A stretch of 64,000 bases of DNA. Origin: Tubulanus polymorphus (Eukaryota; Animalia; Nemertea). The stretch's first letter is position 1. Each line of letters starts with the position of its first letter. Shown piece after piece: positions 2,481-64,000 of the stretch. The notes beneath the pieces were generated by a model that was given only the letters and a program-made list of their open reading frames with translations, was not told the origin of the DNA and ran no database searches. The DNA is taken from NCBI RefSeq assembly GCF_964204645.1, contig NC_134033.1, forward strand, positions 7,324,655 to 7,388,654, given 5' to 3'. The translations under genes and the position numbers were made by a program.

Positions 2481-2787
2481 CTTATCTGGACAGTTATAAC
2501 TACTGCTCCTAATAGATGGCGCCATAAACAGCACCCACACAGTGATAGACAAAAGTAGTGAGATATCAAATAGAATTTAAATAAAATATAATAAAAATTA
2601 CATACCTTCAACTAGCTTGTGAATTCTATTATATTTTTAATATTTTCTTTTCAAAAAAGAATTTATATCACAAATAAAAAATACTAAAAAAACAATAACT
2701 AATACTAGAATTCTTTAGCTTTAACTAGCTAGTATCATTTGAAGAATACTTATAATATTTTTTTTTTGCTTTTTTCCTCTAATATAA

Positions 2788-3778: not shown

Positions 3779-3781
3779 AAT

Positions 3782-5477: not shown

Positions 5478-5485
5478 CTATTTGT

Positions 5486-5634
5486 ATACCTATGTATTAG
5501 ATACCCTAATACCTATGTATTAGATACCCTAATACCTATGTATTAGATACCTTAATACCTAATACCCCATTAGATACCTTAATACCTAATACCCCATTAG
5601 ATACCCTAATACCTGATACCCTATTAGATACCTT
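5486..5634. repeat. Tandem repeat (~23-bp ATACCTATGTATTAGATACCCTA and variants) between convergent genes
   Basis: Directly visible. Confidence 0.85.
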
Positions 5635-5689
5635 AAATAATTAAAACCTTTTTTTATTTACTATTATTTTATACAATTTTCAACTTTTA

Positions 5690-6598: not shown

Positions 6599-6630
6599 TT
6601 ATTATATATATTTTTATTAAAGTTAAAATT

Positions 6631-7880: not shown

Positions 7881-7921
7881 TTATTTAACAAAAAAATAAA
7901 TAATTAATTTTTTATCATGGT

Positions 7922-9388: not shown

Positions 9389-9404
9389 TTACATAATAAA
9401 AAAA

Positions 9405-10793: not shown

Positions 10794-10810
10794 TTATATA
10801 ATTAAAAAAA

Positions 10811-11245
10811 TTAATAATTTATTAATTCTTTTAATAATTTATCTTGTTCTTCAACTGTTATATGACCATTTAAACTTATTATATAATCTAGTGTGTTCTT
10901 TAATTTATTAATTTCTTTTATATTAGTTTTAATTTTTTCTTTATTACCTTTTATATTTAATTTTGAACTTATACCAGTTAAAACACTTGAACTTAATCCT
11001 AATACACCAATTGATATAGCTAAAGGTGTTAATGGACTGAATATTGCTAGAAATGTTATTACAGAACTTATTGTAACCGAACCACTTATAATCAAATAAT
11101 ATATAATTTTACTTTTTAAATATTTTTTCTTTTTAACTTTTAAGTCACTTTCAAATTCTAATATTTGTTTTTCTAAATATATTTTTAATTTAGTTTTATT
11201 TATATCATGAGGAATAATATCAATACTATCAACTTTATCTTCCAT
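10811..11245 (-). CDS. Small 2-TM/coiled-coil protein (144 aa)
   Basis: Intact ORF, TAAATG start, homolog in P2. Confidence 0.8.
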   Translation of the reverse strand: MEDKVDSIDIIPHDINKTKLKIYLEKQILEFESDLKVKKKKYLKSKIIYYLIISGSVTISSVITFLAIFSPLTPLAISIGVLGLSSSVLTGISSKLNIKGNKEKIKTNIKEINKLKNTLDYIISLNGHITVEEQDKLLKELINY

Positions 11246-11264
11246 TTATTTAGAATAAAAATTA

Positions 11265-11687
11265 CTAATTAGTAAACTTATAAGCAACAAATATAACAAT
11301 AACTGTTCCACCTAAAATCCAAATTATTTCATATTTCTGTTGTTCTTTACTCGGGGTATAATAATCTGATAATTTAGGTTTGTATAGATGTAATTTTTCT
11401 TTATTGGTTACCGCGTTATATAAACTCATTGCATCATCAACTGATTGAAAATCTCTATGTGAAATCTTCTGATCATATAATTCTTTATTGATGTAATCCA
11501 TATAGTTTTGCCTCTTTTCTCTATATTCTTCTGCAGCTTTATTGTATTTCTCTAACGCTAAGTTATGTCTTCTTTGTTCTCCTAATGAACTATTTTTATC
11601 AATATGTTTAAATAAATAACCACCACCAGTAAATGCTAAAGCGTTAACAATTGCCGATCCTATAATAGTTATAATTGCAGAAGCCAT
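11265..11687 (-). CDS. Small membrane protein (140 aa), hydrophobic N- and C-termini
   Basis: Intact ORF, TAAATG start, homolog in P2. Confidence 0.8.
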   Translation of the reverse strand: MASAIITIIGSAIVNALAFTGGGYLFKHIDKNSSLGEQRRHNLALEKYNKAAEEYREKRQNYMDYINKELYDQKISHRDFQSVDDAMSLYNAVTNKEKLHLYKPKLSDYYTPSKEQQKYEIIWILGGTVIVIFVAYKFTN

Positions 11688-11712
11688 TTATTTAGCAAAA
11701 AAAATTATGCAT

Positions 11713-11934
11713 TTATATGGGAGGAATATATTTTTGTTTTTCCAAATAATCAATTGTTAAATTAGATAAAGTAACTGCTAATGTTAACTTTAAAATATCA
11801 TTGATATCAAATCTATCAACATTAACACTTCCCATTTTGAATACTTTTTTTAATACCATTGAATAACCAACCGTTCCAACTGATAGTAATGCGCCATTAT
11901 ATAATCCAGTTATTATCCACTTATCATCACTCAT
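11713..11934 (-). CDS. Small hydrophobic protein (73 aa)
   Basis: Almost identical intact homolog at 58683-58904. Confidence 0.8.
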   Translation of the reverse strand: MSDDKWIITGLYNGALLSVGTVGYSMVLKKVFKMGSVNVDRFDINDILKLTLAVTLSNLTIDYLEKQKYIPPI

Positions 11935-12282
11935 TTATTTATCAAAAAAATTACTATCATCAAAATATTTAGTTAACTTATTTATAATTAATTCGACATT
12001 TATTTCATTACTACTTTTATGATTATCATATATTTCAATTATTATTTTTTTAATATCATCGATGATAAAATCTTCATCTAATTCATAAAATCTTAAAGAC
12101 TCAGTAATCTTTTCTACATTTAAAGTTTCTTTATCAATTGTTGTTTCATACTCAAATGTTGTTTCATTAGAAAATACAATATTTTTGATATGTGTAATTA
12201 CATCATTAACGTTAAATTTCATTTCTTTCTCACGTTTAAAATCAAATCCAAAACATATACTCGGTCCGACAGTTATATTCAT
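11935..12282 (-). CDS. Hypothetical acidic protein (115 aa)
   Basis: Intact homolog at 58905-59258. Confidence 0.8.
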   Translation of the reverse strand: MNITVGPSICFGFDFKREKEMKFNVNDVITHIKNIVFSNETTFEYETTIDKETLNVEKITESLRFYELDEDFIIDDIKKIIIEIYDNHKSSNEINVELIINKLTKYFDDSNFFDK

Positions 12283-12298
12283 TTATATAGTGAAAAAA

Positions 12299-13054
12299 TT
12301 ACTCTTTACATCTTATAACTAATTCATATATCACAGGAAAGTTATTCAAATCAATTAAATATCCATTTTGATTTCTAATTTCTAATTTAAAATTATTAAA
12401 TTTAGGAATGCATGGTTTAAAATCACATTCAGTTAAATTATAATTTATTTGAGTTCCAAATTGTTTAACATTTTTTAGCGGTAAAATATTCAGTATACTA
12501 GAATTACAAATTGTTTCTTTAGTTGCTTCGAAAGTTTTTGTAGGCTCGATTAAATTGCAATAAATATAAAAGTGTGTAAAAGGTATTATATTTGAGCTGC
12601 CTTCTGCGTTTCCAGTAACTGTAAGCGGTTTAATTCCTAACATTTTAGCCAGTGGTTTGTTTACCATAAATTTATGTTGTTCATTAGATATCTTTATTCT
12701 AATTTTATTAGTACTATCAATTTTATTAAATTTAATTTCAAATACAGAAGTGCCCCCGATTTTCAACCGAGCTCTTCTATTAATTTCCTGCGCTAATGAT
12801 TCTAAATTATATAATCCTGGTTTTAAAAATATATGAAACCATTTATCTTTATTTCTCATATAAATCATAAACCCTCTATGTTCAAAAGTTTTATCCGATA
12901 CATTGTAAAAAGAATTACATAAACTTATATTAACTAATTTTAAATCTACACAATTCTTAAATTCTCTATCTAATTGAACTAGTAAATTATGTGATTTATA
13001 ATTTGTAAGTCTTCTAGAATCAACAAATATTCTGTATTCTTTTAATTCCACCAT
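12299..13054 (-). CDS. Minor capsid protein / penton (single jelly-roll, inferred)
   Basis: IFVDSR start, ISLCNSFYNV, GLYN, FYIYCNLI, LEIRNQNGYLIDLNN motifs typical of Polinton/virophage pentons. Confidence 0.72.
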   Translation of the reverse strand: MVELKEYRIFVDSRRLTNYKSHNLLVQLDREFKNCVDLKLVNISLCNSFYNVSDKTFEHRGFMIYMRNKDKWFHIFLKPGLYNLESLAQEINRRARLKIGGTSVFEIKFNKIDSTNKIRIKISNEQHKFMVNKPLAKMLGIKPLTVTGNAEGSSNIIPFTHFYIYCNLIEPTKTFEATKETICNSSILNILPLKNVKQFGTQINYNLTECDFKPCIPKFNNFKLEIRNQNGYLIDLNNFPVIYELVIRCKE

Positions 13055-13071
13055 TTATTTTACATATTTTC

Positions 13072-13413
13072 TTATTCGAAATCTATTTCATGGTGCCCTT
13101 TTTCATTCTTACCTTTATATACGAAATAGAAATCACCAGAATATAATTCTTCTAGATCTTCACTTGATAATCTATGAAATCTATCTGGTAAATAAGTTCT
13201 GAATTTATATTTATTTCCTTTTAATCCTTCATATTCTAAATGAATTACTAATTTATCTCCATATTTATTAGTAATTGTTTCAATGTTAGTAATTAAATAT
13301 TTCTTGTGAATTGTTAACTCAGTTAGTTTTTTAAATTTATAATCTACAGATTTGACGCTTGAAGTATCTTTAATTCTATCTAAGAATTCACTGTGTACTT
13401 GTTTACTCTCCAT
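13072..13413 (-). CDS. Small protein, possible OB-fold nucleic-acid-binding protein (KYG...LP.RF)
   Basis: Intact ORF next to polB; diverged homolog at 44067-44393; fold is inference. Confidence 0.7.
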   Translation of the reverse strand: MESKQVHSEFLDRIKDTSSVKSVDYKFKKLTELTIHKKYLITNIETITNKYGDKLVIHLEYEGLKGNKYKFRTYLPDRFHRLSSEDLEELYSGDFYFVYKGKNEKGHHEIDFE

Positions 13414-13428
13414 TTATTATACAAATTT

Positions 13429-16400
13429 TTATTGAAATTGATTATATTTATACTCATTTTCTTTTGTTTCTTCTCTTTTGAATTTTATATATTCATCTAA
13501 ATTGCAACCATATGCAACTGTATGAATTCCATCATCTAAAATATATCTTTTATCATCAAATGGGTTTAGACTTATCTTCTCTATCTCTTCAATATACATT
13601 TCATGATCTTCAGATCTTAAACATTTCATCTTATGTTTTCTAACTTCTTCATTAAATATACAATCGATGTAATCTTTGAAATGAATATTCTTTTCAACAA
13701 CGCTTTTGGTAATTCCTTTTAACTTTTTAGCTTCATGAGTTTTGGTTTTATATGAATACATTTTAGATCTAATACCAATGAACTCTATCATTTCTTCACC
13801 ACCTAATTCATCTTTGAATTTACCGGGAACTTTTTTATTATCATTGCTAAACAATTCATGATTTTTTGGATAATTACTAAAATCAAAATGGTGTTTTAAT
13901 GTTTTTAAATCATCAGTTATGTTATCAGTTTTTATCTTTAATATGTAACTGTCAGTATCAAAGTATAGAATTTCTATGTGTTTTTCTCCAAAATGAGGTT
14001 GTAATACGTTATAGTAAAATTTATACATTAATAACTTTGATAATTCTAAAACTGCAGCTCCAACATAAATTGGTTTATTAAATTTCATTGAAGTTCTTTT
14101 CATTTTAACTGCTGCTAAATTTTCATCAAATATTCTGTTACCTATAAACTTAGGATATGATTGTAAATGCCTTATCCTTTTACCATTACTAACTAACTCA
14201 ATATCATTTCTATTTCTAATATTTTCACAAGTCTTACCATAGAATGCATTATTCATTAACTTGAAGAAATCTTTTTCAAAATCAGTTTTAGCTTTAGTTC
14301 TCTGTGTAGTATTAAAATCTATATATTTTTCTAACCATTTAGATTGACTGAATGAAATATATCTATGTACTTTTTTTAATATCATTCCTTGTCTCAAATA
14401 AAACTTCAACATTCTATAATGCACAACGTAATTATATTTATCTTCTTGAGTTACCATTAACTTTTCTGTATGAATATGATTTTCGGGTTTAATTCTTTTT
14501 TGGTAATTTGATAATTCTTCATGAGTTACAGTTTTATGTTCGGGACAGTAAGCTAGATTTCTAGATTTGAATTTAATATTTTCAGGATATTCCAAGTCTA
14601 TAACAAAGAAGTAACCAATATCTGAATCATCTGCAATATCTAGGATTCTTTTCTTCCAATCAAATTTATCAATTTGTAAAACTTCAGTTATTTCAAACAT
14701 CCCATAAGGTTGTGGTTCCATCATTGCCCAACCATAAAGATTATTTGCATCTATGTATAATAATTTATATCCAGGATTATCATTTACATTGAAATATCTA
14801 TCACCCAATACACCTGAAACACCTCCTCTTATAGATTTTTCAAATAATAGTAATTGATCTATATTTGTTAACAAATCCATTTTTATATCTGTAAATTTTA
14901 ATCCACAATCCCATGTTAATCCTGGTGATGAATAACAATGACAAGGATCAATATTGAAATATTTTAGGTTTACATCTCTAAACCTTTCGAATATATCGGT
15001 TGATAATAATACATCTGATTTTAAATATAAATCTACTAATTGCCCGTGATTTTCTATTTTGAAATGATTCCAAATATTCAATGTTCTATTATAGACTTCA
15101 TCTTTAACATATTCATTTTTTAATTCATCATAAAATTGTTCTTTTAATAATTCAGTTATTTTAAAATCATTATGATTTTTATAGAAAGAATATGGAATTG
15201 CTCCTTTATATCTCATTAATTTAAAATCATCATTATTTGGGTAGTGTTGTTTTAATATTTTTAATTCATCATCAACTAATGATTTTGATAAGTTATCTAA
15301 TGAACTATTTAAAAATCTATATGAATCTATAAATCTTAGACAACCAAATTGGAATGATATATAATTCTCAGATGTTTTAGCTAACATTCTAAATTTATAA
15401 GTTGATACTTTGTCATCTTTTAATCTATTTGAATTTAATATTTCTATTTCATTATTGATTTCTTCTATTTTATGACATAACTGTTTGATGAATAAATGCG
15501 CGTCATATCCTGATAGATTATGAAATATAATGGGGACAAAATTGATTTTCTTTGCTTGTAAGTTACAATTCTCATGTGCAGCGCCTCTAAACTTTCCATT
15601 CAAATGATCATGATCTCTTACCTTTTTATCAGATGAATAGAATACTTGATTACAATAATAACATTTATCTGCAAACTCAAATTCTTCTTTATCTTCTTCT
15701 GTCATAATTATTTCTTTATTTGTATTCAATAATTTACTAAATCTTATTTCATATTCAATTAATAAGTCACAAAAATGATTGATAACATTTTCATTTCTGT
15801 AATTATAATATTCACTTTCAATTAGTTCTGGATAATCAGATTTAATATATAACCCGAAAGCTGCAGCACTTTGATGAATTTTTTTGATAGTATTTGTTAT
15901 TATAGGATCTGAATAATCACTTTCATTAGAATTTAATTTCTTTCTTTTATAATATATATCTTTTCTATCTTTATCTGTTAATTCTTTATTTAATGATTCA
16001 AAATCTCCATATATTACAAATGGTACTTTATTTTTGTAATCATATTTTTTGAATTCTAATATTTTATCTTTTTCATTTGGTAAAACTAATTTACAATAAT
16101 CATGATTATCACATAGTTGTTTATGATTTAATAATGTACTTTCATTACTAAATTTATGTAAACATTTTCTACAAAGATATATTTTATTATGGTGATCACT
16201 TTCTGTTCTAAAAAATAAATCTATTTGTTTAATCCACATATAATGATTCTCATAATATAGTATATCTATAACATCATTTGAATCATAATCTTTTGATAGG
16301 TATAAAGGTTCTAATGTATAATGTTTAATATTATTTCCTTTTGTATTTGGTAATTTGATTAAATCAAATACATTTATCTTTATATTATTATCTCTTTCTA

Positions 16401-17448
16401 TTTTTGGAATATTTTTAATTCTAACAGGATACTTATCTATCTTATAATTATTTTCAAATTGTTTATAATGAGTTAATCTACAAATATTATAAGTTGCAGG
16501 ATGTAAACAACTTATTATAGTCCATAGTAAACATTTATCATCAAAATTTTGTACATTTATTACAGCATTAGTTTTAAATGGTAGTTTAATATAACTCGAT
16601 GCTTCAATATCAGGTTCTTTATAATATGATAAATTATTTTCATCAATTGGTTTTGATTTAGTTAACTTATTATATTTTGTGTTATAAACATGTAAAGTTA
16701 TAAATATTATCTCATCAAATATCAAACCAGATCCTTCAAAATATTTCTCTTCTATTTTAGTTTTTACTTCATTATAACATTTATCTAATTTATCATCTAT
16801 ATGTTGTTTAGATATAATATGTTGTGAATGAGAATTTATATTATATATTGGTTTATCTTCAGATTTTATAAATTTAACTTTAACTGATATACTAATTTTT
16901 GGATATTCAACATCTGTAATTATTTTTATTATTTCTTTCATATTTTCTAAATGTTTTTTATTTTCTTCTATTGTTTTTCCTTTATGAAATTTAAACTCGA
17001 TAGCTGCTGGACCAATATCACTTTTAAATGCTTCGGTTATCTCTATATCTTTTTTATTATCTAATGAATTAATATAATTTCTTACATCTTCCATATATGG
17101 TCTTTTATTGTTTAATTTATTTTTTATTCTTTTAATTGTCTTCTGTTTCTTATCATTATCATTATCAAAATAATCTTCACCTAAAATATCATTATTCTTA
17201 TTTCTAATATGACTTATAGATTTTAAATGTTCTTTATAATATCTTTTATCACTGAATGATTGATTACATGTATCACATTTGTATGCTTTTTCATTCTTTA
17301 ATTCATCTAATTTAGTTTCTAATATATCATCTTCATACTCTAGTTTCAATTTATTCTCTAAATGTGTTTTAGTTTTATTGTGTCTTGCTTTTTGAGACTT
17401 ATCTATATTTATCTTACATGTTGGGCAGTAGTACTTATTTGCTTCCAT
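13429..17448 (-). CDS. polB: Protein-primed family B DNA polymerase (1339 aa), N-terminal zinc fingers, EndoVII-like insert; intein-free allele
   Basis: YGDFES (ExoI), FHNLSGYDAH (ExoII), RDHDHLNGKFRGAAHENCN, YIDANNLYGWAM, KLMNNAFYGK, YFDTDS. Confidence 0.97.
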   Translation of the reverse strand: MEANKYYCPTCKINIDKSQKARHNKTKTHLENKLKLEYEDDILETKLDELKNEKAYKCDTCNQSFSDKRYYKEHLKSISHIRNKNNDILGEDYFDNDNDKKQKTIKRIKNKLNNKRPYMEDVRNYINSLDNKKDIEITEAFKSDIGPAAIEFKFHKGKTIEENKKHLENMKEIIKIITDVEYPKISISVKVKFIKSEDKPIYNINSHSQHIISKQHIDDKLDKCYNEVKTKIEEKYFEGSGLIFDEIIFITLHVYNTKYNKLTKSKPIDENNLSYYKEPDIEASSYIKLPFKTNAVINVQNFDDKCLLWTIISCLHPATYNICRLTHYKQFENNYKIDKYPVRIKNIPKIERDNNIKINVFDLIKLPNTKGNNIKHYTLEPLYLSKDYDSNDVIDILYYENHYMWIKQIDLFFRTESDHHNKIYLCRKCLHKFSNESTLLNHKQLCDNHDYCKLVLPNEKDKILEFKKYDYKNKVPFVIYGDFESLNKELTDKDRKDIYYKRKKLNSNESDYSDPIITNTIKKIHQSAAAFGLYIKSDYPELIESEYYNYRNENVINHFCDLLIEYEIRFSKLLNTNKEIIMTEEDKEEFEFADKCYYCNQVFYSSDKKVRDHDHLNGKFRGAAHENCNLQAKKINFVPIIFHNLSGYDAHLFIKQLCHKIEEINNEIEILNSNRLKDDKVSTYKFRMLAKTSENYISFQFGCLRFIDSYRFLNSSLDNLSKSLVDDELKILKQHYPNNDDFKLMRYKGAIPYSFYKNHNDFKITELLKEQFYDELKNEYVKDEVYNRTLNIWNHFKIENHGQLVDLYLKSDVLLSTDIFERFRDVNLKYFNIDPCHCYSSPGLTWDCGLKFTDIKMDLLTNIDQLLLFEKSIRGGVSGVLGDRYFNVNDNPGYKLLYIDANNLYGWAMMEPQPYGMFEITEVLQIDKFDWKKRILDIADDSDIGYFFVIDLEYPENIKFKSRNLAYCPEHKTVTHEELSNYQKRIKPENHIHTEKLMVTQEDKYNYVVHYRMLKFYLRQGMILKKVHRYISFSQSKWLEKYIDFNTTQRTKAKTDFEKDFFKLMNNAFYGKTCENIRNRNDIELVSNGKRIRHLQSYPKFIGNRIFDENLAAVKMKRTSMKFNKPIYVGAAVLELSKLLMYKFYYNVLQPHFGEKHIEILYFDTDSYILKIKTDNITDDLKTLKHHFDFSNYPKNHELFSNDNKKVPGKFKDELGGEEMIEFIGIRSKMYSYKTKTHEAKKLKGITKSVVEKNIHFKDYIDCIFNEEVRKHKMKCLRSEDHEMYIEEIEKISLNPFDDKRYILDDGIHTVAYGCNLDEYIKFKREETKENEYKYNQFQ

Positions 17449-17794
17449 TTTAATACTATATTTTTTATTAAAATTGATTTTAGAAGTTCAATGATTTAAA
17501 TGTTATTCATTTATGTGAATATTTTAAGAGTAATAGGGATAATGGGCTTTCGGGTTAAAGGTTGAACGGGCGGATGAGTAAAAATGAAAAACATAAAAAT
17601 AATAACAATTTATACTTGAATTAGGAGTGAAACTCATAAAATGAAAAATAAATTCGAGCGTGTGAGAATTTATTTTTCATTTTTATGAGTTTTGCGAGTA
17701 ATTCAGGTATAAATTGTTATTACTTTTATGTTTTTCATTTTTTACGAGCTCGACCGTTCGACCTTTGATCTGAAAGCCCATTATCCCTATTACT
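17335..17794 (-). repeat. P1 right TIR; 17529-17794 palindromic
   Basis: Reverse complement of 1130-1589. Confidence 0.95.
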
Positions 17795-50355: not shown

Positions 50356-50419
50356 AGCCATTTTTAGATTTTATTTTCTTTTCACCTACCATTTATATAA
50401 CAAAAAAATTAGTTGTGAT

Positions 50420-50697
50420 GTTGTAACTAGAATTCAACTAGAATGTAACTAGAATTCAACTAGATTAACAAGCTAGTTGAAATATTGTTGTTTTTGTTTA
50501 TTTCTTGTTAAATCTAGTTGATTTTTGTTTCAACTACTAACAACTAGAATTCAACTAGAATGTAACTAAAAATATACTAGATTAACAAGCTAGTTGAAAT
50601 ATTGTTGTTTTTATTTATTTTTTTGTTACAACTACCAATAACTAGAATTCAACTAGAATGTAACTAGAATTCAACTAGATTATTAAGCTAGTTGAAT
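50420..50697. repeat. 11-bp tandem repeats (AACTAGAATTC/AACTAGAATGT) in three higher-order blocks downstream of the P2 ATPase
   Basis: Directly visible. Confidence 0.85.
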
Positions 50698-51303
50698 TTA
50701 AATAAATTCATATTTAAATGGGTGTTGTAATCTAAATAGTAATTTTGATCTTTTAATATTTTTCAACTTATCCATATATTCATTATGTAAATCATGTGGA
50801 ATAATATCATTTTCCTCAAGTGCATTTTTCATCGATTTTCTATCTTTATTGTAGAATAAAACTAGAAATCTTATATTCTCCCTAAAGTCTTTAACAATTG
50901 AATTATATTTTTGATTTAAAACCCATGTTGTTATCCCAAAATGTCTAGAGAAAGCTAAATAACATAACTCACTTTCTCTCACTTTTGAATCATGTAAATT
51001 TGCGCAATCATCTATGATAAATAATGTATTTGATCCTTTATAAATATCAATTGCTATTTTTATACAATTATCTAAATTTTCTTTTACTGTTTTAGGATCT
51101 AATATAATAAATTTATTATTTCTAGTAATATTTCTATCATAAGTTTGATTAAATTCATATGTTGGACAAAATAATACTATATTATCAAAATAATTTTCAT
51201 AAACAGTTTCTAATAAATTTAATATAAAATAAGTTTTTCCACAATTTGTTACACCAGAAATGAACATATTATGAGGTTCAAATATAAATAATTCCTTATT
51301 CAT
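50698..51303 (-). CDS. P2 packaging ATPase (lacks the Gly of SGRH)
   Basis: GVTNCGKT, FIIDD; close homolog of 4863-5477. Confidence 0.85.
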   Translation of the reverse strand: MNKELFIFEPHNMFISGVTNCGKTYFILNLLETVYENYFDNIVLFCPTYEFNQTYDRNITRNNKFIILDPKTVKENLDNCIKIAIDIYKGSNTLFIIDDCANLHDSKVRESELCYLAFSRHFGITTWVLNQKYNSIVKDFRENIRFLVLFYNKDRKSMKNALEENDIIPHDLHNEYMDKLKNIKRSKLLFRLQHPFKYEFI

Positions 51304-52429
51304 TTATATATTTTTAATTTTACTTGACAATATCCATTCATTGAATTTATCTGGCCATCCAACCCATTTTACTAAAGAATATTTTTTTCTTTTAACAGTT
51401 TTTGTTTTTTATACTTTTTCAATTTTATATTCTTGTTCTAGATTTTCAGTAGTTAAACTCAATTCTTCTTCATAAAAATACCCATCAACTTCTTCACCAT
51501 CTAAATCTTCTAATTTATAGACATATGGTTTTGTTATTACCTTTTTTATTTTATACATTTCCCTAGTAAAATTTCGATCGTATCCTTTGTCAAATATCTT
51601 TTTATACTTAGAAATTCTAACATTTTGACCAACTTTAAATTTAGGTTCACCAAAATCATCTACAAGAAATGCTCCATATAAATTATTCCAAACAATTTCA
51701 GCATTTTCAGGTTTTCTAGCATCAATAGGTTTCATTCCAATAGAAGAATGATAAGAATTATTATATCCTTCTATCAATTTTGGTAAAACATCAATCCATT
51801 TTAAAAGTATTATTTGCTGTAAAATATTTCCACATTCTTGTTCTTAATGTTCTATTAAATCGTTCAACAACTGCTGCTTTTTTATCCGATTTTGTTGAAA
51901 AATATTTAATATTATGATTGTCTAAGAGTTCATGAACAAGTGAATTATCAAACTCTTTTCCATCATCAAATTGTATTTTTTCTGGTTTTAGTTTATCATC
52001 CGAAAGAAATTTTCTTGAAACATTTGATGTTTGTACAGCATCTTTTCTATAAAGTGGGAAGCTTTACATAACGACTAAAAATATCAATTATATTCAATAA
52101 CCACCAATAATCATCATTATCTTTCTTAACATTTTTCATATCAATTAAATCTCCTTGCCACTGTTGATCTACATAACTTACCATAGTTTTACGAGTTTTA
52201 TATTTTCTAACAATTTTTTTATGTGTTGTGTATGTTGGTTGTTCTAACATAAATTCATTTATATCTTTATATTTAACTAAATTTTGTGGGATTATCTTAT
52301 CTAATTTATCTTGTTTTACTTGACGCCATATATTTTTGGTAGAAGAATAAGCAACCGAACTCTCAGGGTTGTAATATAAATTTCTTAAATATTGTTCTTT
52401 AATATTAGGAGTTTTTTTTTACCGCCCAT
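51296..52429 (-). pseudogene. int: P2 RVE integrase with chromodomain, several frameshifts
   Basis: QQWQGDLIDM, IIDIFSRY, FDDGKEF, VERFNRTL, VKWVGWPDKFNEWI in shifting frames. Confidence 0.9.
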
Positions 52430-52459
52430 TTATATATCCTTAATTTTAACTTTATATTT

Positions 52460-53707
52460 CTAATATTGAATACTATCTAATTGAGAATTTACAATATTTA
52501 ATTGTGCGTCAGATATAATATAAATGTGCATTTTAAAATTCAAGCTTCCTTTTTTCTTTTTCATGAATAATTGTATTCCATCTTTAGTGTTCTGTAGTTT
52601 TTTCCCAGAACCATGTAATGAATTATCCTCTGTTGTTCTAAAATCTAACCATAATGCATATTTATTACCGGTATAATAATCAATTTGATTAATATTACAA
52701 TTTTCAAATGATTTTACTTTTTCATTCATAAAATGTTTTCTAATTTCTGGCCATTGATCTATCATTCTCATTCCTTGACAAAATATTTTATTTGCTATTC
52801 CTTCGATTGTTATTTCTACTTTTGTTATTTCAGGATTATAATAATTATCTACCTTTATTGCGCCATTAGTATATGTTGCAATGGTAAAAAATATTAATAT
52901 ACCTTTAATCGATCTTCTTGGGAAGTTAATATTCTCATTAATTATGTCATCATTTGCATTAATAGTTACAGTTTTAAATTTATCAATATTATCATATAAT
53001 AATGAAAATCCTTGATTGTATTGAGTTTGAATTGTGCTAGCAATATTTTCATTAGTTACTGTGTTATATTGTAAACATATATTCGATAATTTATAACCCA
53101 TATCTTTAACAACGCTAGATAATACAATTTCATTTACAGGAGCAAATGTTATCTCAAATATAATATCTTCTTGAATTGCATATTTATATAAAGGTGCATT
53201 ATTATTTATCAATTCAAAGTCTAATGGAATTTTATATTTGCTTCCATAAATCTTTTTAATCAAATTATCTACGTCATTAGTTACTACTGCATTATTGGCT
53301 TCAGATCTTAATTTATTTTGGTTTTCTGATTGGATACCTTGAAATATCATATTATTTCTATTTTCTTTAGTTAACCATAAATCTTTATAATGTGCAAATA
53401 AATTATAATCATCTAATGAGAAAACTGTTTCTGGTCCAATCTTTATAGTTAATTTTTTAATCAAATATCTTCCAACATTATCAACAACATAATTATTATT
53501 ATTACCAGTTACTTTTATATCGGCTGATAAATAAATACTATTTGGAACATAAAAAGTATTTTGTGTTAATCTAGGAATTCTAACATATAAAGTTTCATCG
53601 GGATTAATATTTGAAGGATTATGAGTAATTATATGATGAGATCTTTGTGCTTTAATAGCATTAGATATTCTATGATTCTTAGAAGGATTGATATAACTCC
53701 CACTCAT
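52460..53707 (-). CDS. P2 major capsid protein (inferred), intact 415-aa ORF
   Basis: Uninterrupted homolog of 6631-7880. Confidence 0.75.
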   Translation of the reverse strand: MSGSYINPSKNHRISNAIKAQRSHHIITHNPSNINPDETLYVRIPRLTQNTFYVPNSIYLSADIKVTGNNNNYVVDNVGRYLIKKLTIKIGPETVFSLDDYNLFAHYKDLWLTKENRNNMIFQGIQSENQNKLRSEANNAVVTNDVDNLIKKIYGSKYKIPLDFELINNNAPLYKYAIQEDIIFEITFAPVNEIVLSSVVKDMGYKLSNICLQYNTVTNENIASTIQTQYNQGFSLLYDNIDKFKTVTINANDDIINENINFPRRSIKGILIFFTIATYTNGAIKVDNYYNPEITKVEITIEGIANKIFCQGMRMIDQWPEIRKHFMNEKVKSFENCNINQIDYYTGNKYALWLDFRTTEDNSLHGSGKKLQNTKDGIQLFMKKKKGSLNFKMHIYIISDAQLNIVNSQLDSIQY

Positions 53708-53747
53708 TTATTTAACAAAAAAATTAATTATTTATTTTTTATCATGG

Positions 53748-55211
53748 TTACTTGATATTTTTTGATATCATATTTACTAAACCAAAAATAATAGCACTTA
53801 CAATTGTAATTAAAAATAAAATAATATGTTCAGCAGCAAAGTTAAGAATATTCCCAGCAGATTTCAATATAAAACCAACAATTGATGCAATAATTCCTGG
53901 TAAAGCTGCAGCAGATTTTTTAGATAGTTCCCATAAATATTTTGCTAATTTCTTTAAACCATCTTTAACTTTATCTTGTATAGAATTATTATCTGGGGGT
54001 TTATCTGGTTTATTTGGAGTAGGAGTAGATTTTAAAGCATTTGATATTGCTAAACCAATTGTTGTAAATAACATAGTTACAGCTGTTAGAATTGAAAGAA
54101 TTGTTATTCCTTCTAATTTAAATAATAATTTTATCCTATCTTTTAATGATATTTTAGAATTTGGTTTTATCAACAAATCTTTAAAAATAACTTTTAATCT
54201 ATTAATATTATAATCATATGATTTTAATAATAATTTAATTTCTTCTTTTTGTAATTCTATGTTATATTCTAAATCATCTTTTTCTTTTCCTAAATATGCA
54301 TTTCTTTTTTTAAATTCAATTTCTTCAATAACTTTATTATCTCTATCTAATTTTAATTGTTCTATTTCTTTATTTTTATCAGTTAATTCTTTTTCTAAAG
54401 TTCTAATTTTTAAATCTCTTATACTTTTATCATGCGCAATTTTATCAGATGCATGTCTTATACTTTCAATTTCTCTAATTGCTTTATCAGAAAATATATC
54501 TAAATCTTCTAATTCTTGATCTGTTGCATCAATTAATCCATTCGGTAAAAGTTTTTCAATTGGAACTTTATTTGATTTAAGTTTACTAGTTTTGGAAGTT
54601 ATATTCTGTTCAGAAGTTGTTTCTGTTTCTGATTTCTTTTTGATTATTTCAAATAATTCATTAATTCTTTGTTTAAATACGTCTATATTATCATCTATTT
54701 CTTTTTGTGTAACATCAGTTATTTCATTACTATTACTTATTATTTTAATTTTATCTGGTTTCAAACTTTTCAAAGTTGATTCCGCGAATATTTTTTTTTT
54801 ATTTTTAGAAGTGATATCAATATAATAATCACCTTTCAAACGATAATAACATTTACCATTATCTAAAAATTTTAATTGATCTGCTAAAAGTCCAACGTCT
54901 TCATCATTTATATTAAGTTTAGATTTTTCAATTAAATCTTCTAATTTAGGTATTTTGTTTAAATTAAGTATTAGTACTTCTAATTTAGGTATTTTGTCTA
55001 AATCTTGTTTTACTAAATCGGGGTCTAAATTTTCAGGATTTAATTGTGATTCTGCATTTTTAATATAATCAGGCATATTTAAATTATTATTATATTCTGG
55101 CTCATTATCATCATTAAAACTTGTTTCACTAAAATCAGGTTGTTGTTCATCACTTATACCAGGTTCATCAAAAGGATCCATTCCAATATCTTCTCCACCT
55201 TCTACATCCAT
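53748..55211 (-). CDS. P2 homolog of the 488-aa coiled-coil/membrane protein (intact)
   Basis: C-terminal ~150 aa almost identical to P1, N-terminus diverged. Confidence 0.85.
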   Translation of the reverse strand: MDVEGGEDIGMDPFDEPGISDEQQPDFSETSFNDDNEPEYNNNLNMPDYIKNAESQLNPENLDPDLVKQDLDKIPKLEVLILNLNKIPKLEDLIEKSKLNINDEDVGLLADQLKFLDNGKCYYRLKGDYYIDITSKNKKKIFAESTLKSLKPDKIKIISNSNEITDVTQKEIDDNIDVFKQRINELFEIIKKKSETETTSEQNITSKTSKLKSNKVPIEKLLPNGLIDATDQELEDLDIFSDKAIREIESIRHASDKIAHDKSIRDLKIRTLEKELTDKNKEIEQLKLDRDNKVIEEIEFKKRNAYLGKEKDDLEYNIELQKEEIKLLLKSYDYNINRLKVIFKDLLIKPNSKISLKDRIKLLFKLEGITILSILTAVTMLFTTIGLAISNALKSTPTPNKPDKPPDNNSIQDKVKDGLKKLAKYLWELSKKSAAALPGIIASIVGFILKSAGNILNFAAEHIILFLITIVSAIIFGLVNMISKNIK

Positions 55212-55227
55212 TTATATAATAAAAAAA

Positions 55228-57764
55228 TTAAAATTTAAAATATAATATTCCTCCTATAACAATTCCTATACAAGTTAAAGCTAATTTAGTATTTTCGTGG
55301 AATTTATTATCATTATCAGTTTTAATTATATCATGCTGAATATTATCAGTTTTTATATTTTCTGATGTATTGTAATCTTTTATTTTAGAATCATTATGCA
55401 ATTTAATATTTTTAGTTTTAGTTTCTGTTGATCGAATATGTTTTTTGACGCCTTATAAAACGTTACCATTATGAAACCTAAACAATGTTAACCATTCAGC
55501 GTCATTTTACAAACGACAGCCGTAAATCGATGTGCAAAACGTCACAGGTCTATGTGTACACAAATAAGCTATCTGGCAAAATATTATTGACATAGATGTA
55601 GAATGGCTTCCTGTGATTATATAATGACCTATATTTGAACGTCGAAATGTTATATTGCATTGAATATCATTAGAAGACGTATTGTAATAGTAAAGGATGT
55701 ATGATTATATCAGAAGCGGCAGGGATAAATATAAATGATAAGTAAATCGGATTATTCGATTAAATGGCGGATGTATACACGATTTGGAAGTCTGATATAA
55801 AAGTCAGACCCTGACGTGGGCATGCCGGTGGAATGACGAAGCTATCTACGATGTGTGTAGGGCCGGCGTGAATTTCATCAGCGGCTACAAGCGGTCAATA
55901 TGAAAATGTGTAAACATATAATTTCAATATTCAAACGTTTTAGAAAATATGTTTGATATTAGGAGTATGCAGGTTTCGTGAGATTAGCAATTTATAATAG
56001 CATAGCTATCATATACGGCTCCGCGTCCTCTGATGGCATGTGTATTAGGTGACAATTCAATTCAATTCTTTATTGATCCTTATTACATTGAAATTTCGGG
56101 ATAAAATTCCCAAATTCAATAAATACAAATTTTTAAATAAATTAATATAACATACATGACACACGGGTAATTCATACAGAACAACATAAGCATGTTATTT
56201 TAAATGACAATGTCTACTTCAACCCACCCAGACTCAAGACTCTAGGATATCGAGTGACAGCCAAACCCGTGGCCCGGGCCGGCTGGCTAGGCCACACGAT
56301 ATGCTCGAAGTCATGATGAAGCAGACATCAGAAGAGCTCGTTCTTCAACCATGGAGGCAATGAAGTTGCAGACCAGCTTAGAGGCATAAGTAAATGAAGT
56401 CGGTCGCAGGTTCGCGATCAATTATTGAGAATTTTCAATAAAAAAATTTAAACTACTACTAAGGTCGAAGACCCGCTGTATCATCTACCCAATCGCCAAA
56501 TCTCATCATTCCCCAAATTTCGATTTCAAATTTGCAATTCCACATTAGCTTAGTCCAGAAATTATACATTTTTTTCGCAGGCGTCAAATAATTTTTTAAA
56601 ATTAATTTTCTTGTTTATTTTTTTCACCTTCCATTAATTTTGGAGCAGTGATAATCTTTTTATTTATATCATTTAATGCAAATGAATTATTTATTGTTGC
56701 AGTTTTAATTAGATTATTATAACCAATTATATTTCCCATCTTTAGTACTAAATCATTAGAAATAATTAATAGATTAGGGCCTATACAATAATTTAGTCTT
56801 ACATGTGATTTATCTAAATAATTGTGATATCTTACAATGTTTTCTGGAATCGATCTATTTTTATCATTATGAATAGAATCTTCAAACAATACTTTGAATT
56901 GTTTCTGTGTATCAAATGATGTATTCAAATTTCCAATTATTGGGGATCTTGTTTCAACTTGCGCACCTAAAATACATATCAAATAAGTTCTAATAGATTG
57001 ATTTATTCTTTGTATACCTGATTTTGTAAAACCTTCATTATTTTCTAAAATGAAATAAACCCAACCATTATTGTTTTCTTGTTTTAAATTATCATAAAAT
57101 GTCGGTAATTTATTGAAATTTAATGTTTCTAAATCCTTAGTTTCTATTTTACCATAACCTAATTTATTATTATAGATATTATAAAAGCTATTAGATGGTA
57201 TGGGAAGTGCACAATATTCTGCAATCTTTTTAGGGCAAGGAAGTGATCTTATTGTTCCAATTTTTGTTCTAAAATCAGAATTATTTATATCTATATTAAA
57301 TTCATTACAAATTTTATAAAACTTTGATAAATTAATATTATTATCTAATTCTTTAAAATACCTAGATCCTGGTAAAGCGCACTCTAATTCATTTAATATT
57401 ATTCTGATTTGAAAGTAAGTATGAAATCTAAACAAACTTTGAATTAATTTATATTTAGAATTATTCAAATGATCATTCCAACTAATTCCACATCCTGTTG
57501 TTGCACAATAAACAGCAATATACTTCATATTAGATTTTAATAACCATTTTCATCTTTCATTTTTTTAAAATTAATTAAATAAACATGAAATATATTTTCC
57601 ATCTTTGCATTAAAATTATTACTTTCAGTAACATAAATATATAAATCAATTAATGAATTTAAAACTTCATTTCTATATGTAATATCTTTATTAAAATCTA
57701 TTGCTGGAATATGATATTTAATTGATTTATTATATTGGAAAGCTTTTGGAAAACTATCTACCAT
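55228..57764 (-). pseudogene. P2 homolog of the 462-aa protein, frameshifted and interrupted
   Basis: Fragments 57764-57537, 57528-56614, 55443-55228 colinear with P1. Confidence 0.88.
55443..56613. mobile_element. ~1.17-kb non-coding insertion, Helentron-like
   Basis: Inserted in a T tract with no clear TSD; asymmetric inverted repeat TTTGACGCC (55444) / GGCGTCAAA (56580). Confidence 0.5.
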
Positions 57765-57780
57765 TTATATAATTAAAAAA

Positions 57781-58216
57781 TTAATAATTTATTAATTGTT
57801 TTAATAATTTATCTTGTTCTTCAACTGTTATATGACCATTTAAACTTATTATATAATCTAGTGTATTCTTTAATTTATTAATTTCTTTTATATTAGTTTT
57901 AATTTTTTCTTTATTACTTTTTATATTTAATTTTGAACTTATACCAGTTAATACACTTGAACGTAATCCTAATACACCAATTGATATAGCTAAAGGTGTT
58001 AATGGACTGAATATTGCTAGAAATTTTATTACAGAACTAATTGTAACCGAACCACTTATAATCAAATAATATATAATTTTACTTTTTGAATATTTTTTTC
58101 TTTTTAACTTTTAAGTCGCTTTCAAATTCTAATATTTGTTTTTCTAAATATATTTTTAATTTAGTTTTATTTATATCATGAGGAATAATATCAATATTAT
58201 CAACTTTATCTTCCAT
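57781..58216 (-). pseudogene. P2 homolog of the 144-aa protein, frameshifted in A runs
   Basis: Colinear with 10811-11245. Confidence 0.82.
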
Positions 58217-58232
58217 TTATTTAGAAAAAAAA

Positions 58233-58658
58233 TTACAAATTAGTAAATTTATACGCTACAAATATAACAATAACTGTTCCCCCTAAAATCCAAATTATTT
58301 CATATTTCTGTTGTTCTTTACTTGGGGTATAATAATCTGATAATTTAGGTTTGTATAGATGTAATTTTTCTTTATTTGTTACCGCGTTATATAAACTCAT
58401 TGCATCATCAACTGATTGAAAATCTCTATGTGAAATTTTCTGATTATATAATTCTTTGTTAATGTAATCCATATAGTTTTGTCTCTTTTCTCTTTATTCT
58501 TCTGCTGCTTTATTATATTTCTCTAATGCTAAGTTATGTCTTCTTTGTTCTCCTAATGAACTATTTTTATCAATATGCTTAAATAAATAACCGCCACCAG
58601 TAAATGCTAAAGCGTTAACAATTGCTGACCCTATAATAGTTATTATTGCAGAAGCCAT
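58233..58658 (-). pseudogene. P2 homolog of the 140-aa protein, premature TAA
   Basis: Colinear with 11265-11687. Confidence 0.82.
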
Positions 58659-58682
58659 TTATTTAGCAAAAAAATTATGCAT

Positions 58683-58904
58683 TTATATAGGAGGAATATA
58701 TTTTTGTTTTTCTAAATAATCAATAGTTAAATTAGATAAAGTAACTGCTAATGTTAATTTTAAAATATCATTTATATCAAATCTATCAACATTAACACTT
58801 CCCATTTTGAATACTTTTTTTAATACCATTGAATAACCAACAGTTCCAACTGATAGTAATGCGCCATTATATAATCCAATTATTATCCACTTATTATCAC
58901 TCAT
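58683..58904 (-). CDS. P2 73-aa hydrophobic protein
   Basis: 71/73 aa identical to P1 copy. Confidence 0.8.
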   Translation of the reverse strand: MSDNKWIIIGLYNGALLSVGTVGYSMVLKKVFKMGSVNVDRFDINDILKLTLAVTLSNLTIDYLEKQKYIPPI

Positions 58905-59258
58905 TTATTTATCAAAAAAATTACTATCTTCAAAATACATAGTTATCTTAGTGATGATTTTGACATTTATTTCATTACTAGTTTCATTTGTATATATTTC
59001 AATTATTATTTTTCTAATATCATCGATGATAAAATCTTTATCTAATTCATAAAATCTTAAAGATTCTCTAATTAAATTAGTAATCTTTTCTACATTTAAA
59101 GTTTCTTTATTTATTGTTGTTTCATACTCAAATGTTGTTTCATTAGAAAATACAATATTTTTGATTTGTGTAATTACATCATTAATGTTAAATTTCATTT
59201 CTTTCTCACGTTTAAAATCAAATCCAAAACATATACTCGGTCCAACAGTTATATTCAT
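58905..59258 (-). CDS. P2 117-aa hypothetical protein
   Basis: Homolog of 11935-12282. Confidence 0.8.
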   Translation of the reverse strand: MNITVGPSICFGFDFKREKEMKFNINDVITQIKNIVFSNETTFEYETTINKETLNVEKITNLIRESLRFYELDKDFIIDDIRKIIIEIYTNETSNEINVKIITKITMYFEDSNFFDK

Positions 59259-59274
59259 TTATATAATGAAAAAA

Positions 59275-60037
59275 TTACTCTTTACATCTTATAATTAATT
59301 CATAAATTACAGGAAAGTTATTCAAATCAATTAAATAACCATTATGATTTCTTATTTCTAATTTAAAATTGTTAAATCGTGAAATACAAGGTTTAAAATC
59401 ACATTCAGCTAAATTATAATTTATTTGCGTTCCAAATTGTTTAACATTTTTTAATGGTAAAATATTTAATATACTAGAATTACAAATTGTATCTTTAGTT
59501 GCTTCAAATGTTTTTGTAGGATCAATTAAATTGCTATAAATATAAAAATGTGTAAAAGGTATTATATTTGATATACCATATGTGTTTCCGTAAATAAAAG
59601 TATCTGAAAGAATTCCTAACAGCTTAGCAAAAGGTTTTTTTACCATGTAAGCATGTTTTCTTATCATCAATGAATCATCAACACTTTCGTCATCAAACTT
59701 TACTCTAATAAAATTAGAGCTCTCACTTTTCATGAATTTAATATTAAATTTAGAATCACTACCTAACATAATCCGAGCTTTTCTATTAATTTCTTTCGCT
59801 AATGTTTCTAAGTTGATAAGCTATTTTACTATTACGTCTTTCATAAATAAAAAAGGTTCTATGTTCGTCAGTTTTATCCGATATATTGTAAAATGAGTTA
59901 CATAAACTTATATTTACTAATTTTAAATCTACACAATTCTTAAATTCTCTATCTAATTGAACTAATAAATTATGTGATTTATAATTGGTAAGTCTTCTTG
60001 AATCAACAAATATTCTGTAATCTTTTAATTCTACCAT
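59275..60037 (-). pseudogene. P2 penton / minor capsid protein, frameshifted
   Basis: Both ends near-identical to 12299-13054; central part diverged. Confidence 0.78.
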
Positions 60038-60105
60038 TATTCATAACATAAAAAAATTACCGCTCATCACTAAAAATTAATTTTAATAAAATTTTTCCTT
60101 AATAA

Positions 60106-61421
60106 ATGGATGAGAAGATAGCATGTGAAATTTGTGGTGAACTTCTAAGAAAAAGTAATATGGCTCGACATATGAAAAAACATGATGAAAATTATAAACC
60201 CCCTTAACTAAACTGTCCAAAATGTAATAAATTATTCTCAAGAAATTATGTTAAAAAACATTCAGAGAAGTGTAAAATTAATGGCGCAACGGCGAATGTT
60301 GATAGCAATGAAAGCAATAGTAATTCTGTTGAAGTTGAACCTGAAATTATTTGGAAAAGACCTTTCTTATTCTATGATAAGGATAATATAAAAGATCATT
60401 TCTGTGAGCCTTGTCGAATAAAATATAGCCCTTAAAATATAGAAGATTGGGAGAATCATCAATTTCATAAAGTACATATAGATAAAAATTCTAATAAATT
60501 TGAAGCAGAATTCAAAGAAAGAAAAAATAAAATATTAGAAAAAATAAAATATGAGAAAACGTTACCAGATAATAAAGAAACAGTTGAAAAGTTAGAAAAA
60601 CAATATAATGAATTAACAAGAAAAACATATTATTGTAAATATTGTAAATTGATTATTACAACAAGTAATTCAAATCTACATAATAGAACAATAAACATAA
60701 AGAAAACGTAAGAAAATACCAAGAGCTTAATGAAGATCTATTACCAATAAATTATAAACGAAAATGTCCACAATGTAGTTATGCGACCTTAAGACAAGAA
60801 GGTACTGTGTTATTTTGTAATGAATGTGGATGGCAAAAGAATTTATTGGGTGAAGAAAAAACTAGAAATTTTCTCATAGATCCAAAATTAAATTATCTTG
60901 ATGAAATTTTCAAAATATTTTCTATAGAAGATCATACACCAGAATATATGCAATGGCTTGAAAAAATGAAAATAATAGAAAATAAAAATGGTGAAATAAC
61001 TAAAAAAGATATTATAAAAACAATTATTCCATCAACATTTAACACAAAACAAAAGAAAATGTATTTATATTTATTATTCAACGATTATTGTGAAAAACCT
61101 AAATTAACAGAAGAAGATATGAAAAATATAAAAAAAATATTCAAACAAATATTAATGTATCATTTGGAAAATAGAATAACAGATTCAATAAATTATGAAT
61201 TCTTTTTAAATAAGATTGTAAATTATTTAAACCAAGATATTATAATTCCATTTGATGAATTAACAAACAAAAAGAAACAAAGAGAGCGAGATGAAATGTG
61301 GAACAAGATAGAACTTTATTTAAATGAGAAAAATGGAATGGAAGAAGAACCTGAACAATTAAATGAAAATGAAGAAGCCAATAGTGATTTCGATTATGAT
61401 GATGTTGATTTTATGTTTTAA
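60106..61421 (+). pseudogene. Multi-zinc-finger protein fused to a poxvirus VLTF-3 (A2)-like late transcription factor domain
   Basis: TAAATG at 60103; CEIC..H..H, CPKC, CEPC, CKYC fingers with stops/frameshift; CPQC...EG.VLFCNECG ribbon; PKLT.E...IKKIFKQI...SINYEFFLNKI...DEMWNKI. Confidence 0.62.
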
Positions 61422-64000
61422 TAACAATAAGGTAATGTTTTTATACCATCATCTAAAATATGCCTTTTATCATCAAATGGATTCAAACTAGTTTTTTCAA
61501 CTTCATTAATGTACATCTCGTGATCTTCTGATCTTAAACAATTCATTTTGTGTTTCATTACAATTGAGTTATATAAACACTTTATATAATCTTGAAATTC
61601 TATATGTTTATCAACCACATGTTTTGTTATTCCTTTTAACTTTTTAGCTTCATCATCTTTTGTTCTGTAACTATACATTTTACTTCTTATCCCAACAAAT
61701 TCAATCATTTCATCACCCCCTAATTCATCTTTAAATTTACCAGGAATCTTTTTATTATCATTGCTAAATAGTTCATGATCTTTGGGATAATTGCTAAAAT
61801 CAAAATGATGTTTTAATGTTTTTAAGTCTTTTGTTATATCATTTGTCTTCATTTTTAGTATGTAACTGTCAGTATTTTTGGCTATTAATGGAAATCCACA
61901 GTTAAACGTGCCATCTTCAGTTGATAAATCATAAACATAATCTGTTGGGTTACATATTTCAAATAAATCTTTAACTTCTTCTGTTAACTCATTTTCTACA
62001 TGGTTTAAATTAAAGCAATTTGGTTTAGATTTAATCAATCCAATATTCATATTAAAACCTAATGAATTGCATAATATATTTAATCCTGATATAGCAACTT
62101 TTCCTTTTTGTGCAAAGGTTATCTTTTAATACTTAATAAATTTTTAGTACCATCTGCTGCGTAGAATCCAATGAAGAACCATTTTCTTAAATTATCTTTT
62201 GCATTTAATACATAATCTGGAACTATCTTTTCTCTTGTTGAAGTATTACTTTTAACTATTGCATGAATATAGAATTCATCATTATATTTTATAGCAAAAT
62301 CTTTAGGATTATTTACAAGTATTCTATAAACTGCTGATGATTTCATAACATCCATGATTCTAAATGTTTTATGTGAATAAACTTCTTCACAGAATTTCTT
62401 AATTCTTTCTAATAATTTCAAGTCTTGATTGCATAAATACCAACAATATTTATTACCCCAAACATAATTATACACACCTGCTGAACCATCACCCATGAAA
62501 AATCCTTTGATAAAATATTCTTTTTCTTCTAATGTTTCGGGTTCTATATTATAAATATTATCAATAATTTCATCAAATGACATATGATTCATTCTTTGGA
62601 AAAATCTTTTATGTAATAATTCATCTCCAATTTTTATATCAGTTGGTTTTATTTCATCACCATTTCGTTTAATTAACTATGATCTTCTGTAACATCTACA
62701 AACCCTAATTTAGTTCTAACTCTATAGATTTTCTTATTTGTTTTAACCCTAATAATATTCTTTAATTTTTTCCATCCATTTCTTGTCCAAACATCCATTA
62801 ATCCATTTATTTGTATTAATTCTTTTTCACCATATGAAATATAACATTCATTTTGTTTTGGAATTATTTCTGAAATTCTTCTTATCAATATTTTATCATT
62901 ACATTTTAATAATATTGGGGTGTCAGCTGTTACAGAATCAAAATATAATATTTCAATATGCTTTTCTCCAAAAAGTGGTTGTAAAACATTATAATAAAAA
63001 TCATACATTAATAATTTTGATACTTCTAAAACAGTTGAACCAATGAATATAGGTTTATTAAATTTCATTGACGTTCTTTTTAATTTAACTGCTGTTAAAT
63101 AATCTTCAAATCTTTTATTACCTAAATGTCTAGGGCTTGATTGTAGGTGTCTTAATCTTTCAGAATTATTTACTAATTCAATATCATTTCTATTTCTAAT
63201 ATTTTCACATGTTTTACCATAAAAACTATTATTCATTAATTTGAAGAAATCTTTTTCAAAATCTGTTTTTGATATGGTTCTCTGTTGAGTATTGAAATCT
63301 ATATATTTTTCTAACCACTTCGATTGATTAAATTCATAATATCTATGTAATTTCTTTAATTTCATTCCTTGTTTTAGATAAAATTTTAACATTCTATAAT
63401 GAACAATATAATTGTATTTATTATTTTGAGTAAGTATTATTTTTTCTGTAAAAACATGATCTTTCGGTTTTATTTTCTTCTGGTATTCACTTAAATAACT
63501 ATCATCTACAGTTAAATGTTCTGGGCAATAGGTAGGTTTCTTGTTTTAAACTTTATATTTTCAGGATATTCTAAATCAACTACAAAGAAATAACCAATTG
63601 GTGCTTCATCTTTTAAACTCGCAATTGCGCTTTCCCAATCAGTTTTATCATCATTTTCAACTTCTGTGAATATAAAATTTTTATATGGTTGAGGTTGCAT
63701 CATTGCCCAACCATATAAATTATTGGCGTCAATATATAATAATTTATATTCATCATTTGCTTTAAAATACCTATCTCCCATAACACCACTAATTCCACCT
63801 CTAATTGATTTTTCAAATAATAAAACCATATCTGGTTCTTTTAATAAATCTAATTCTACATTTGTATATTTTAAACCACATTGCCAGGTTAAACCAGGAC
63901 TAGAGTAGCAATAACAAGGATCAACATTAAAATGATTCAAATCAACTTCTCTAAATTTTTCAAATATGTCAGCCAATATCATAACATCTGATTTTAAATA
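61418..64000 (-). pseudogene. polB: P2 protein-primed PolB (5' part outside window), intein-containing, frameshifted
   Basis: YIDANNLYGWAM, KLMNNSFYGK, YFD[intein]TDSY, NPFDDKR. Confidence 0.95.
61874..62936 (-). mobile_element. Intein with LAGLIDADG homing endonuclease (~355 aa, two 1-nt frameshifts) in PolB motif C
   Basis: Block A SVTADTPILL, block B VTEDHS(L), blocks C/E FIKGFFMGDG and FFIGFYAADG, block F YVYDLSTEDGTF, C-terminal ...LIAKN followed by Thr+1. Confidence 0.93.

Follow-up and report, generated by a model that had tools for sequence, protein, structure and literature searches.

The pol-c insertion site is defined for PolB inteins in the available text of PMC549080. Mimivirus and other Nucleocytoviricota carry PolB inteins at this site, YGD^TDS in motif C, and Ser1, the Asn, Thr+1 and the LAGLIDADG motifs of these inteins are shared with the insert described here. 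PMC10710043, in the text seen, reports that endogenous viral elements of Klebsormidium, Tetrabaena and Honda have inteins within their viral-like DNA polymerases. For the protein-primed PolBs (pPolBs) of Polintons, a nematode preprint describes HNH and VSR inserts, the word 'intein' being absent from its accessible text (10.1101/2023.08.22.554363), and the part available of PMC11071308 suggests homing-nuclease insertions in pPolB to be the outcome of intein invasions. PMC12220804, in its available sections, mentions inteins in general terms only, and the accessible text of the coral and adintovirus papers does not contain the word. Metazoan genomes are stated to be without inteins in the available portions of PMC5784728 and PMC8529194. 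In the literature searched we found no Polinton pPolB reported to carry an intein with a Hint domain; supplements, Repbase, InBase and subscription papers could contain a prior record.

We analysed a stretch of DNA of 64,000 nucleotides (the window) that contains two Polintons, P1 and P2. The pPolB of P2 is interrupted in motif C, and the parts of the interrupted gene are:

61874..62936, minus strand: insert coding for a LAGLIDADG maxi-intein, located at pol-c in the P2 pPolB; 1063 bp, in three frame pieces, decayed
62676..62936, minus strand: N-terminal Hint piece with Ser1, the motif NX position (His missing) and TEDH; TIGR01445 match above cutoff
62122..62676, minus strand: endonuclease piece with GFFMGDG (~62505-62485) and GFYAADG (~62169-62149); PF14528 match with E=3.7e-4, below cutoff; 58% identity to the relative P0001
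61874..62125, minus strand: C-terminal piece with the last part of the endonuclease, block F (YVYDL, with Gly in place of the usual His) and block G (KN); aligned to the family by hhalign
62937..64000, minus strand: N-extein of the P2 pPolB with motifs A and B and a break near 63530, continuing past the window edge; PF03175 E=3.2e-8
61418..61873, minus strand: C-extein of the P2 pPolB, starting TDSY

The insert falls exactly between the codons for Asp and Thr in YFD^TDSY. Junction alignment confirms what a sequence-only reading of this DNA had claimed, namely a precise 1063-bp insert at this site, an uninterrupted YFDTDSY at 13957/13956 in the P1 pPolB, and identity of P1 and P2 over the first 15 nt past the site. 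The residues listed by that reading (Ser1, TEDH, GFFMGDG, GFYAADG, the terminal KN and Thr+1) are all found in the insert, and motifs, profile matches and relatives agree with its assignment to the class-1 Ser1/Thr+1 LAGLIDADG inteins. In a profile search of the kind that it had proposed, the N piece passes TIGR01445 (intein_Nterm) with 32.2 bits against a cutoff of 24.5. In addition, hhalign matches the two end pieces to a 103-row intein family with E=1.9e-26 and 4.8e-21. By these profile and hhalign scores, the resemblance of the insert to inteins is beyond chance. The middle piece gives a weak LAGLIDADG_3 match in Pfam and chance-level matches only in a PDB sequence search, and neither Hint piece of the window copy was matched in the Pfam search. 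Precise codon boundaries, Hint motifs and open-frame relatives rule out a spliceosomal or group I intron.

Uninterrupted relatives of this intein in Polintons are 337-354 aa long. The frame of the window copy is broken near 62675 and at 62125-62140, as the sequence-only reading had it, and at a third point that it had missed, in the N-extein near 63530. The window copy is thus unable to splice or home as written, and its function has probably been lost since, together with the rest of P2. The two Polintons have the following features:

1130..17794, no strand assigned: complete Polinton P1 with TIRs, AGTA..TACT ends, the 6-bp target duplication CACATG, integrase, A32 ATPase and capsid-like genes
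13429..17487, minus strand: P1 pPolB, a single open frame of 1352 codons with the empty site at 13957/13956 and an EndoVII-like domain
50400..64000, no strand assigned: decayed Polinton P2, forming a mosaic with P1; the left boundary is approximate
60687..61421, plus strand: VLTF3-like ORF, with none in P1, facing the 3' end of the P2 pPolB; Atlas 0.96, 30/30 matches Pox_VLTF3, recognition value low
55446..56586, no strand assigned: 1141-bp insertion nested within a P2 gene and bounded by 7-bp terminal inverted repeats

Polintons are marked by TIRs with AG..CT ends and a 6-bp target duplication. In the window these are found in P1 only; the window stops short of the right end of P2, whose left end showed no P1-type TIR. 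The pPolB, retroviral-type integrase and packaging ATPase of P1 match PF03175, PF00665 and PF04665, respectively, and their P2 counterparts were found by tblastn. A candidate jelly-roll capsid gene gives a weak Capsid_N match in Pfam (E=0.013), and the capsid and penton labels are putative, given by recognition. P2 is 86-91% identical to P1 in the capsid block and 75-79% identical in the pPolB and integrase; at least five P2 genes have frame breaks, and P2 also holds the nested TIR insert. The two pPolBs are 76-79% identical in DNA and 77% identical in protein, which rules out P1 as a true allele of P2, so that the "empty allele" of the sequence-only reading is a paralogue. The integrase-ATPase block of P2 is inverted relative to P1.

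A Pfam search for VLTF3 in the ORF at 60687..61421 gave no match, and tblastn of the ORF against the 160 intein loci kept for comparison returned nothing; the presence of VLTF3 in polintoviruses has been reported previously, according to the text available of PMC11131425. A long inverted repeat (window 1000-26347) has P1 inserted in one of its arms. Arms at ~17800-20740 and 22930-26350 are ~98% complementary, with pieces of PHD-finger and helicase-like ORFs. The region 47299-50400 holds a 31-bp tandem satellite and, beside it, a repeat unit with ~6,000-24,000x depth in the sequencing run X6, and P1 has a small HNH-like ORF near its left TIR (2100-2480, plus strand, Pfam E=0.012).

A search with the middle piece matched four proteins among 480 candidates. 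P0001, a 1693-aa pPolB, has an open-frame intein at YGD^TDS; its identity to the window insert, whose breaks were written as X, is 61%. In P0003 and the P0002 cluster (55 members) the site is YMD^TDS. The P0001 intein as query returned 1302 matches, and pPolBs account for five of the best 120 (P0001, P0171, P0179, P0182 and P0183). The pPolBs with an open-frame intein, in every case at motif C, are P0001, P0003, P0171, P0179, P0182 and P0183, among which P0171 stands for a cluster of 136 members; several carriers lie on short contigs of 5-13 kb. The P0179 polymerase has no BLAST match to that of P1, and on our reading of its sequence it would be of Vsr type. The same motif-C intein was found in pPolB clusters of both main Polinton polymerase types.

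P1-like pPolBs were absent from the best 150 of 3771 representatives and from the 160 kept intein loci, which have YGD..TDS flanks of the RNA-primed PolB type, with giant-virus MAG names on 29 of the 80 viral loci. P0001 is the one intein carrier in the best 120 relatives of the P1 polymerase. A scan of viral_contigs with P0002 alone found no relative among seven candidates, and phage records gave a single weak match (27%). Several giant-virus-type PolBs (P0019-P0051) have two related inteins, at an SxN^SxYG site and at pol-c. Motif C itself varied in 119 empty Polinton pPolBs (P0291-P0409), with YMDCDS commonest (26) and YMDTDS the next cited (19). In 43 empty pPolBs motif C seemed more variable than motifs A and B, a comparison that lacks a proper control and is a lead only.

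The residues of the window copy separate decay from family variation. Specifically, the block B TxxH and the block F Asp are present as TEDH and YVYDL and are invariant in 103/103 family rows. The motif NX His, described as critical in Ser1 inteins in the available text of PMC10189870, is missing from the window copy; the NX column was assigned from the preceding Arg/Lys and its location ahead of block B, and it holds His in 103/103 family rows and in P0001, P0171 and P0179. Its loss, which the sequence-only reading had not noted, is attributed to decay of the window copy. The sequence-only reading had singled out a penultimate Lys in place of His; the residue is indeed Lys, but this is no peculiarity of the P2 copy, as 84 of 283 family inteins (near-copies included) likewise have Lys, and such a frequent family variant is neither an oddity nor a sign of decay. 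Furthermore, the block-F Gly and penultimate Lys of the window copy occur together in 83 of 280 parsed inteins, while 177 have His/His (near-copies again included). P0179 has the same Gly/Lys pair, indicating that the pair is not a product of decay. Replacing two usual His residues, it is a putative splicing variant, possibly with an alternative chemistry for Asn cyclisation. In the endonuclease, the window copy has the acidic residues of both LAGLIDADG helices, GFFMGDG and GFYAADG, as do all Polinton rows (8/8).

The AlphaFold model of the P0001 intein has a pLDDT of 93.4. Its top structural matches are the TliVMA intein (7qsu, E=1.5e-16), 2cw7, PI-PfuI and PI-SceI, and the fold of its endonuclease region matches I-DmoI and intein endonucleases. 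The P0001 intein is therefore predicted by the model to have the Hint fold of the LAGLIDADG maxi-intein type, and the N piece of the window copy has the TIGR01445 match given above. The overall fold of the model is that of the archaeal LAGLIDADG maxi-inteins (TliVMA 7qsu, 2cw7 and PI-PfuI) and yeast PI-SceI, although these solved structures are only 12-18% identical to the P0001 intein and come from other host proteins in other organisms. The P2 insert is genuinely an intein, from a family already known, in a type of host protein for which our literature searches found no report of one.

In a 155-row FastTree phylogeny, the Polinton inteins form one branch with a support of 99. In a 78-row IQ-TREE quick tree (no bootstrap), the 8 Polinton rows again form one branch (100 SH-aLRT) among 70 other rows, which were hand-picked from the FastTree neighbours and further matches. 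The Polinton inteins lie amid giant-virus-type inteins, near a group with the same C-terminal GFPLI signature, with no resolved sister, and their clade is nested under both midpoint and author-chosen roots in trees without archaeal or phage inteins. Site, profiles and trees are all consistent with the earlier claims of pol-c site use and kinship with giant-virus PolB inteins, and the intein was likely transferred from a giant virus to a Polinton. The sequence-only reading had an NCLDV PolB intein moving into a pPolB; the giant-virus kinship agrees with this, but the event was not a one-off jump into P2, as the lineage is older and present in several pPolB clades. The P1 site differs from 158/158 giant-virus-type sites at positions -6 and -5, a point against such a transfer, as the first jump would need relaxed specificity.

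In a 49-row polymerase tree, from which P0179 was excluded for its great distance, intein presence in the 6 carriers takes 6 changes, 5 of them forced by strong branches, and placing the carriers in one polymerase clade is rejected (AU p=1.2e-5). This patchiness could also arise from an early gain followed by several precise losses. The identities of intein and extein rise and fall together (58/61, 67/64 and 80/76), which speaks against purely horizontal spread and indicates long residence of the intein in Polintons. The alike identities within each pair, together with intein subclades that roughly mirror the polymerase subclades, are what would be expected from a single ancient acquisition followed by vertical descent and repeated precise loss, with an endonuclease that no longer homes and an intein that persists by splicing. 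We nevertheless consider this explanation unlikely, in view of the same intein in P0179, a very distant pPolB of putative Vsr type, the retention of the acidic residue in both LAGLIDADG motifs across the Polinton rows, and the altered, diverse sites in near-identical empty copies, which go beyond precise loss alone.

These altered sites come from the P0171 cluster, whose contigs reach 1.0 Mb. We read 40 of its 136 members; 15 are listed, including 7 full-length carriers and 4 full-length non-carriers. Carriers and non-carriers differ by at most 1.3 per 30 residues in 34 upstream comparison windows, by 8.9 at the site and by 5.0 just after it, and at the site the carriers are uniform (0.6) and the non-carriers varied (4.0). 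Three kinds of altered site, YTD^CDS, YFD^TDA and YGD^TDA, occur among six empty members. Site-focused divergence is predicted both by co-conversion of flanks in homing and by survival of uncuttable empty sites, and is not predicted by precise loss by itself. As a pattern in sequences, it points to probable homing and target escape. In the proposed cycle, the Hint domain of an uninterrupted copy would splice out and rejoin YxD-TDS to give an active polymerase, the freed endonuclease would cut motif C in intein-free Polinton copies of the same nucleus, break repair would copy in the intein with a few flanking codons, and empty copies with a diverged site would survive. The earlier suggestion of homing between Polinton copies thus gains indirect support, mostly from other records (the P0171 cluster and the polymerase tree), and the window copy itself is broken.

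Taken together, the insert is probably best explained as a decayed LAGLIDADG intein with Ser1 and Thr+1, placed at pol-c in a Polinton pPolB and belonging to a single Polinton lineage whose likely source is a giant-virus PolB and whose likely mode of spread is homing. We propose more tentatively, at somewhat below an even chance, that a giant-virus intein is resident in animal Polintons, where it would splice in animal cells, home among germline copies and across distant polymerase types, and drive escape variants of the catalytic motif (DCDS, DTDA and synonymous recoding). If true, metazoan genomes would contain a naturally occurring intein homing cycle. Families with near-identical filled and empty copies make homing and target escape testable.

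Homing might instead occur only in a free viral phase, between co-infecting polintoviruses, leaving integrated copies as passive records without germline homing. This would fit the decay of the window copy, the carriers on 5-13 kb contigs, which could be free viruses, and the intein-endonuclease interference proposed between co-infecting giant viruses in the text available of PMC5871332. However, the 55- and 136-member clusters, with contigs up to 0.8-1.0 Mb, mix carriers with non-carriers or fragments. Both states therefore exist among integrated copies, and the place of exchange is not thereby fixed. We rate viral-phase-only homing as possible, though less likely than not; it is compatible with most of the preferred reading of one Polinton intein lineage that spreads by homing.

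Four runs with one species label, from two samples, contain over half of the sampled words; the small-share marine run X5 was left out of the evidence. X6 comes from a different sample from the window's, and ~12% of the run was used. Its depth is 159-254 across the intein and 222-288 in the P2-only flank, values that are relative only, as the sequence adjoining P2 is a high-copy repeat and gave no single-copy baseline. As the two depths are close, the intein is carried by most P2-type molecules in X6; abundant free virus may contribute to the depth. Reads with an indel relative to the window number 189/240 near 62675, 48/118 near 62140 and 178/251 near 63530, and nearly all X6 reads differ from the window at the motif-NX codon, indicating that the damage is largely specific to the window copy or its assembly. 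Empty joints were exact in 48 X6 reads and had synonymous changes in the TDS codons in 38, and these reads may come from the P1-type family rather than from P2-type copies.

Alternatively, P2 could be contaminant or non-animal DNA, either that of a protist symbiont or a viral contig joined in error, and the intein would then lie outside the animal nuclear genome. Consistent with this, no read or contig piece bridging the P2-host junction is among those listed for X6, and domain searches of the window found transposon-type domains only, with no animal-specific marker gene. Yet P2 is broken in at least five genes and by the nested TIR insert, as described above, it adjoins the ~6,000-24,000x repeat of X6, P2 and this repeat both being found in the four runs, which come from two studies, and a clean target duplication flanks its close relative P1, which is 86-91% identical in the capsid block. 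Elsewhere in the window, moreover, lie eukaryotic transposon relics (gag/protease, P-type TNP, PHD and RFX-like). Contamination thus seems improbable, and the host of the intein-bearing P2 is likely an animal. In that case Polintons would be an entry route for inteins into metazoan genomes.

Compared with the pol-c inteins of Nucleocytoviricota, the Polinton intein has a different host, the protein-primed PolB of an integrating Polinton in a multi-copy nuclear setting, and the residue before the Asp of its sites varies (F, M, L, G, S), unlike in Nucleocytoviricota; the best full-length matches among giant-virus-type pol-c inteins are 37-39% identical to the window insert. The elements of PMC10710043, as far as its available text goes, resemble P2 in having an intein within a viral polymerase gene on eukaryote nuclear scaffolds, but their hosts are algae and a protist, and the main text of that paper lacks the words 'polinton', 'maverick', 'animal' and 'metazoa'. 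The HNH and VSR insertions, in the text accessible, likewise place nuclease domains within Polinton pPolBs; the main texts of both reports (10.1101/2023.08.22.554363 and PMC11071308) do not contain 'LAGLIDADG', and the parts available describe no Hint domain. Where earlier work only suggested intein invasions, the Polinton intein is direct evidence, at the sequence level, that polymerases of giant viruses and Polintons have exchanged a selfish element. Unlike the HNH and VSR insertions, the P2 insert and its relatives have a full splicing domain, placed in the catalytic motif.
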